Source: Escherichia coli (GTDB lineage Bacteria > Pseudomonadota > Gammaproteobacteria > Enterobacterales > Enterobacteriaceae). From it: a stretch of DNA of 64,000 nt. Below are positions 18,412 to 18,578 of the stretch, in pieces; position 1 is the stretch's first letter; every line of letters starts with the position of its first letter. A program made the position numbers and the translations under genes. The notes beneath the pieces were generated by a model. The model was not told where the DNA came from, made no database searches, and saw only the letters and a list, made by a program, of their open reading frames with translations. The stretch lies in assembly GCF_011045215.1 (NCBI RefSeq), contig NZ_CP049201.1; one strand, written 5' to 3'.

Positions 18412-18578
18412 AATAAATCTGATTTTGTAGGAAAAAAGATGAGATGGCTGGAAAAGATGAGATGGCTGGAGTGTGTTAGTTTTGTTTAGACTGGTTATGA
18501 TGAATATCGGTGGGCAATGAAAAAAGTACACAGCGTTGTCGTGAGTGGAATGATACCAATAAGCAAGGCAATTAACTA

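Follow-up and report, generated by a model that had tools for sequence, protein, structure and literature searches.

The window considered here is a stretch of 64,000 nucleotides (nt) from Escherichia coli (contig NZ_CP049201.1 of the assembly GCF_011045215.1), in which a pap-like chaperone-usher operon is encoded on the + strand. The subject of this work is an 18-bp tandem duplication found in the distal end of that operon, in the 167-nt spacer (18412-18578) that separates two genes transcribed in the same direction. The upstream neighbor encodes a minor fimbrial subunit of 188 amino acids (aa), similar to PapE/F (17845-18411; PF00419, E=1e-15), while the downstream neighbor is an adhesin-like open reading frame (ORF) of 319 aa with a signal peptide (18579-19538), hereafter adhesin-1, whose sole family match is a sub-threshold one to the MrpH_C adhesin domain (E=0.003). 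The repeated unit, AAAAGATGAGATGGCTGG, occurs twice head-to-tail on the + strand at 18434-18469 (copy 1 at 18434-18451 and copy 2 at 18452-18469), with zero mismatches and nothing in between. A perfect duplication at this place, between the papE-like gene and the first adhesin-like gene, had been reported in a first-pass annotation of the sequence; its location is correct, and its presence was confirmed both by direct reading and by Tandem Repeats Finder (TRF).

The array delimited by TRF extends from 18434 to 18470 (period 18, 2.1 copies, 100% matches, score 74), and the A at 18470, the base following copy 2, also fits the unit. The microhomology at the junction consists of one base, namely the A present at 18434, 18452 and 18470. 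No further site matching the unit with up to three mismatches was found in the window, and two or more matches to it were never obtained in 100 dinucleotide shuffles. Moreover, this is the sole perfect array among the three detected by TRF with a score of at least 50 in the window. The other two are imperfect: one, at 33930-34005, has 3.3 copies of a 23-nt unit (75% matches), and one, at 21414-21454, has 1.9 copies of a 21-nt unit (80% matches) and is located at the 3' end of the third adhesin-like gene of the operon.

The duplication lengthens the spacer from 149 to 167 nt. Three tiny ORFs can be read in it on the + strand. ORF-a (MRWLEKMRWLECVSFV*, 18439-18489) has 16 codons, against 10 when the unit is present once, and nothing indicates that it is a gene; it begins downstream of a Shine-Dalgarno (SD)-like motif (GGAA AAAAG ATG, 18430-18441, with AGGA in the 18429-18432 region and the ATG at 18439), and the duplication provides it with six extra in-frame codons and a second in-frame ATG at 18457. 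ORF-b (MMNIGGQ*, 18497-18520) ends with a TGA overlapping the ATG of ORF-c (ATGA), and ORF-c (MKKVHSVVVSGMIPISKAIN*, 20 codons, 18517-18579) ends in turn with a TAA overlapping the ATG of adhesin-1 (TAATG). ORF-c lies inside the 109 nt adjoining the adhesin-1 start, which are unaltered by the duplication, and it stays open in all the spacer alleles described below. In one of these, of 146 nt, a 3-bp deletion in the 18562-18578 region takes out the only SD-like AAGG upstream of adhesin-1. No ORF was called by gene callers in the spacer, on either strand, in any of about 30 loci. A 41-aa ORF on the minus strand (18406-18531) was considered and rejected, being a mechanical ORF with a GTG start, uncalled in any locus, in which the repeat is merely read as QPSHLF twice.

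The comparison of related strains revealed that copy number does differ, one against two. In a comparison with complete E. coli genomes and with the plasmids of PLSDB, the same portion of the operon was found only in E. coli C5 plasmid A (NZ_CP010123.1, from cow), which has one copy of the 18-mer and whose alignment to the window leaves an exact 18-bp gap. Draft assemblies carry the operon commonly, with the minor-subunit protein in 767 index blocks and adhesin-1 in 156. A set of 26 distinct related records, designated here by L and a number, was retrieved (L005 and L015 being the same contig); the sample is non-random and the allele frequencies drawn from it are accordingly rough. The junction k-mer GATGGCTGGAAAAGATGAGATGG is diagnostic of two or more copies, and GGCTGGAAAAGATGAGATGGCTGGAAAAG of three or more. 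One copy is present in 23 of the 26 records and two in the remaining three, while three or more copies were found in none. Four spacer alleles can be distinguished in the same records, with a length of 146 nt (n=7; L001, L003, L006, L010, L021, L023 and L043), 148 nt (n=14), 149 nt (n=2) and 167 nt (n=3). In the JGI metagenome collection the duplication junction had no matches, a null result that says little, as the operon is present there once, in single-copy form.

The three 167-nt records, L022 (GCA_036881595.1), L025 (SRR11014969) and L026 (SRR9674885), have spacers identical to that of the window and, over up to 4.9 kb, show 1, 0 and 4 differences from it, respectively. One of the 149-nt alleles, that of L024 (GCA_036881095.1), is identical to the spacer of the window with exactly one unit removed. 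L024 shows five differences from the window over up to 4.9 kb, and every other locus at least 25. The two-copy state is therefore restricted to one clade of near-identical sequences, next to which a single-copy parent allele exists. Relative to the 23 single-copy relatives copy 2 counts as the extra one, although either of the two may be the new copy. One or two events of gain or loss account for all the copy-number data, which is the behavior of an ordinary indel and not of a hypermutable repeat.

An indication of the nature of the spacer comes from more distant operons, in which DNA homology to the window ends at the stop codon of the minor-subunit gene. The genes common to these operons are, in order, papK-like, FKBP-like isomerase, minor subunit, small lipoprotein (127-132 aa) and adhesin-like (about 320 aa). 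The lipoprotein gene, located between the last minor-subunit gene and the adhesin gene, is syntenic with the spacer, and the operon of the window, devoid of this gene, has the spacer in its place. In particular, operons whose adhesin is 63-65% identical to adhesin-1 possess an intact 132-aa lipoprotein gene directly upstream of the adhesin, and in relatives with an intact gene its stop codon is found 1-5 nt before the adhesin ATG. By tblastn, the lipoprotein gene was detected in 26 plasmids of Escherichia, Salmonella, Serratia, Pantoea and others; furthermore, the chromosome of E. coli RM11911 (NZ_CP044313.1, L028) contains a lipoprotein ORF of 130 aa (MIRTGILFLVGLLLTGC..., L028:4579-4971) which is unannotated in the RefSeq record. 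The precomputed label of the lipoprotein, PF27278 YuaE, was not reproduced, as Pfam scans of the lipoprotein proteins, made with a copy that lacks the PF27278 model, gave no match, and nothing relevant was found in the literature on YuaE and on CP010123. In the L027 and L036 plasmids the lipoprotein gene breaks off after about 28 codons, at the junction with another adhesin cassette, which represents a precedent for breakage inside this gene.

Similarity to the lipoprotein gene is found at both edges of the spacer. On the left, a BLAST alignment with permissive scoring between the window and L038 runs 36 nt beyond the stop codon of the subunit gene, through the SD and the ATG at 18439, to 18447. 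In L038 and L028, where the lipoprotein gene is intact, its SD and its start codon are the aligned counterparts of the SD-like AGGA and of this ATG (GGTGGGAGATGACAAGG versus GGAAAAAAGATGAGATGG). When the first 52 nt of the single-copy spacer were subjected to an anchored global alignment, the real score was reached by 38 of 5000 shuffles for L038 and 47 of 5000 for L028; the same test against L036 was not significant (712 of 5000). On the right, the BLAST alignment of the adhesin genes starts 37 nt upstream of the ATG, within the last codons of the lipoprotein gene (TGAGTGG-AATGATACCAA versus TGAGTGGTAATGTTACTAA), with a block of 17 identities in 19 columns. The last 10 or so codons of the lipoprotein gene align in this way with positions 18542-18578 of the spacer, which include the 3' part of ORF-c. 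The shared frame of ORF-a and ORF-c had also been considered as a sign of an in-frame deletion, and was dropped in view of the 1-nt gap that has to be placed after codon 3 in the alignment.

From these data it can be proposed, with reasonable if incomplete confidence, that the spacer represents a decayed, internally deleted remnant of a lipoprotein gene of about 130 aa. It has the same position as the small lipoprotein gene of pap-like operons and retains a recognizable SD and start codon and, probably, 3'-terminal sequence, but it misses about 280 nt, and the rest is decayed: there is no intact ORF, translation from the old start would meet a stop after 16 codons (10 with one copy), and no lipobox cysteine is found. 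It should therefore be considered a remnant and not a member of the family. The middle of the spacer would share this origin. On this reading, the 18-mer is composed of the final four bases between SD and ATG, the old start codon and the 11 nt that follow it.

Taken with the distribution of the alleles, this makes it likely that the 18-bp repeat is a neutral lineage marker, that is, an ordinary and stably inherited tandem duplication in the remnant of a lipoprotein gene. The two-copy allele would have arisen by one short tandem-duplication event of 18 bp in a relaxed non-coding spacer, caused by replication slippage or template switching, and would then have been passed on vertically, remaining stable in a small E. 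coli lineage. Neutrality is the most likely condition, given that the segment appears to belong to a dead gene, has a length divisible by three and leaves intact the 109 nt by the adhesin-1 start. The case shares with the known short tandem-duplication indels produced by slippage or template switching the perfect head-to-tail copies, the single-copy parent allele, the inheritance within a clade and the relaxed non-coding site; it differs in that the junction microhomology is of 1 nt only, with no clear trace of classical slippage between direct repeats already in place. The slipped-strand origin put forward in the first-pass annotation is thus retained in part: a duplication of the slippage or template-switching type presumably took place, starting from an allele like that of L024, whereas a recurrent slipped-strand site does not agree with two copies found only in near-identical sequences and never three or more.

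Several points weigh against this reading. In addition to the non-random sampling noted above, five informative sites conflict over the placement of L024, either inside the two-copy group or beside it as a sister. Site 19346 puts L024 with the window, L025 and L022 and leaves out the two-copy L026, so that L024 would be nested, while site 19574 gives the opposite grouping, with L024 as the sister. L024 may consequently represent either the ancestral state or a precise revertant, and a second event is conceivable as well. As for the remnant, the right edge taken by itself does not reach significance when anchored and aligned globally (p ~0.2), the reading frame is not kept after codon 3, and a profile built from three homologs gave only 0.6 bits with nhmmer, a score that was nevertheless reached by just 11 of 1000 shuffles. 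Unanchored local alignments of the spacer with the lipoprotein-gene region were also not significant, and for this reason the anchored tests and the BLAST extensions from the flanking genes were relied on. Finally, the selective neutrality of the duplication is something that we infer.

According to the first-pass annotation, the duplication may change the spacing of expression signals. This proposal was not supported, since no promoter-like or terminator-like site is present in either allele and the repeat is located 109 nt upstream of the adhesin-1 start. In fact, scans for sigma-70-like promoters and for intrinsic terminators gave none in the two-copy or one-copy allele. For the one-copy and two-copy spacer RNAs alike, folding is no better than that of shuffled sequences (z = -0.51 and -0.49), and both are predicted to form identical helices downstream. 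No Rfam match was obtained in the spacer at E<=1. The spacer is poor in C (9%) and hence without an obvious Rho loading site. GATC is absent from 18251 to 18700, which indicates that the spacer is not a pap-type Dam/Lrp site.

Other explanations of the repeat have to be weighed against that of a neutral lineage marker. A sequencing or assembly artefact behind the two-copy state has a negligible probability and is already refuted by the occurrence of the same two-copy spacer in three independent public assemblies (L022, L025 and L026), i.e., one NCBI assembly and two separately assembled SRA runs. It might instead be supposed that the locus is a contingency locus, in which the 18-bp repeat changes copies often by slipped-strand mispairing and switches or tunes the adhesin through the spacing of signals. 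Simple-sequence contingency loci of fimbriae and adhesins include the TA repeats of the hifA-hifB promoter in Haemophilus influenzae, the poly-C tracts of the fim promoters in Bordetella and the TAAA repeats of nadA in Neisseria; their units are of 1-8 nt, in many copies, placed in promoter spacers or at coding 5' ends, and variable among sibling isolates. The present repeat resembles them in being upstream of an adhesin gene and in having a copy number that differs between strains; moreover, site 19346 would nest the single-copy L024 in the two-copy group, implying a precise loss, and the same operon has a length-variable G tract, so that slippage-based variation does occur in the system. However, the unit is long (18 nt) and present in just two copies, no promoter was detected in either allele, the repeat is 109 nt away from the adhesin ATG, a unit whose length is divisible by three leaves any reading frame as it is, one copy prevails (23 of 26 records), with two only in near-identical sequences and never three or more, and the state is stable within the clade. 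A contingency locus is accordingly very unlikely, the short unit, the hypervariability and the position typical of this class all being missing.

The same tiny ORFs described above suggest a further possibility, namely that the SD and the ATG at 18439 are still translated and that ORF-b and ORF-c hand ribosomes over to adhesin-1, the duplication altering translation or polarity. The good SD-like AGGA 6 nt upstream of this ATG and the overlap of the ORF-c stop with the adhesin ATG are in favor of such a relay, as is the lipoprotein stop 1-5 nt before the adhesin ATG in relatives, which makes an ancestral coupling probable; in addition, the SD of adhesin-1 is weak and is wholly lost in the 146-nt allele, and both spacer indels (18 bp and 3 bp) are multiples of three. 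On the other hand, ORF-a stops 27 nt before the start of ORF-c, ORF-b has no SD, the alleles are too alike for conservation to be informative, no ORF here is called by any gene caller, and the duplication is more than 100 nt from the coupling site. The relay is thus unlikely, and it is equally unlikely that the duplication affects the expression of adhesin-1 by way of coupling and of translation beginning at the vestigial start. The fuller version, in which the remnant is not inert, the SD/ATG and the chain of tiny ORFs couple translation into adhesin-1, and the second start and the six codons tune output in the lineage, is quite improbable. Lastly, the duplication could have created a second binding site for a regulator, for instance of the PapB/PapI type, or for a small RNA in the distal operon. 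This is suggested by the fact that the operon codes for both PapB-like and PapI/FaeA-like regulators, a likeness to the Pap-type Dam/Lrp/PapI switch, and by a loosely similar motif, TGGCTGAA, occurring twice in the preceding spacer, at 17801 and 17826. Nevertheless, the Pap-type switch works with paired GATC sites in the papI-papB regulatory region, whereas the spacer studied is at the distal end of the operon and lacks GATC; the unit shows neither internal symmetry nor a periodicity of 9 bp, no other site in the window resembles the 18-mer even at three mismatches, and a single copy suffices in nearly all strains. A second binding site is therefore highly doubtful. The two TGGCTGAA motifs (17801-17833, 25 nt apart) are situated just upstream of the papE-like gene, and their loose likeness to TGGCTGGA, at the end of the 18-mer, is probably due to chance.

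As a candidate for slipped-strand phase variation, the 18-mer is far surpassed by a G8 homopolymer at 19566-19573, which precedes the second adhesin-like gene, 3 nt from its ATG (19577). Its length ranges from 6 to 10 G among close relatives. Among otherwise near-identical loci the tract is G8, G9 or G10 (G10 in L024), and in another allele group it is G5TG6 or G5TG7; its length sets whether an upstream ATG at 19547 is in frame. Part of this variation could be homopolymer sequencing error.

As regards the rest of the operon, all genes are on the + strand. Upstream of the minor-subunit gene there are two PF00419 subunit genes (11714-12274 and 12357-12941), the usher (13053-15629), the chaperone (15759-16490), a PapJ-family gene (16517-17113; PF14855, E=4e-56) and a papK-like PF00419 subunit gene (17110-17697). 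Downstream of adhesin-1 are a second (19577-20506) and a third (20539-21483) adhesin-like ORF, followed by the gene for the FaeA/PapI-like regulator (21807-22022). The three adjacent ORFs at 18579-21483, of about 310-319 aa, have signal peptides and come after the minor subunits; they are called adhesin-like because of their position and size. No similarity among them was detectable by BLASTP, and the second and third have no family match, the weak MrpH_C match being limited to the first. In related operons one such gene only is present, and the three ORFs may be a tandem set of alternative tip adhesins. Farther away, from about 42000 to 64000, the window contains a type VI secretion cluster (tssH, vgrG, tssC, hcp and others) that is 94% identical to the Citrobacter sp. 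TSA-1 plasmid NZ_CP053574.1 and falls outside the region common to the window and E. coli C5 plasmid A.

A further spacer of 147 nt (17698-17844), which separates the papK-like gene from the papE-like one, looks like a second deletion scar. Here homology to relatives ends 4 nt past the papK-like stop codon and resumes 37 nt before the next ATG, and at the same position the relatives possess a 1.3-kb gene for an FKBP-type peptidyl-prolyl isomerase. The operon type represented in the window would then have lost two accessory genes, the FKBP-like isomerase and the small lipoprotein, leaving behind spacers of about 148 nt. The 18-bp duplication does not look like a phase-variation device and is of little importance in itself, but it provides a handy marker of one small E. 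coli lineage among those that carry this pap-like operon.
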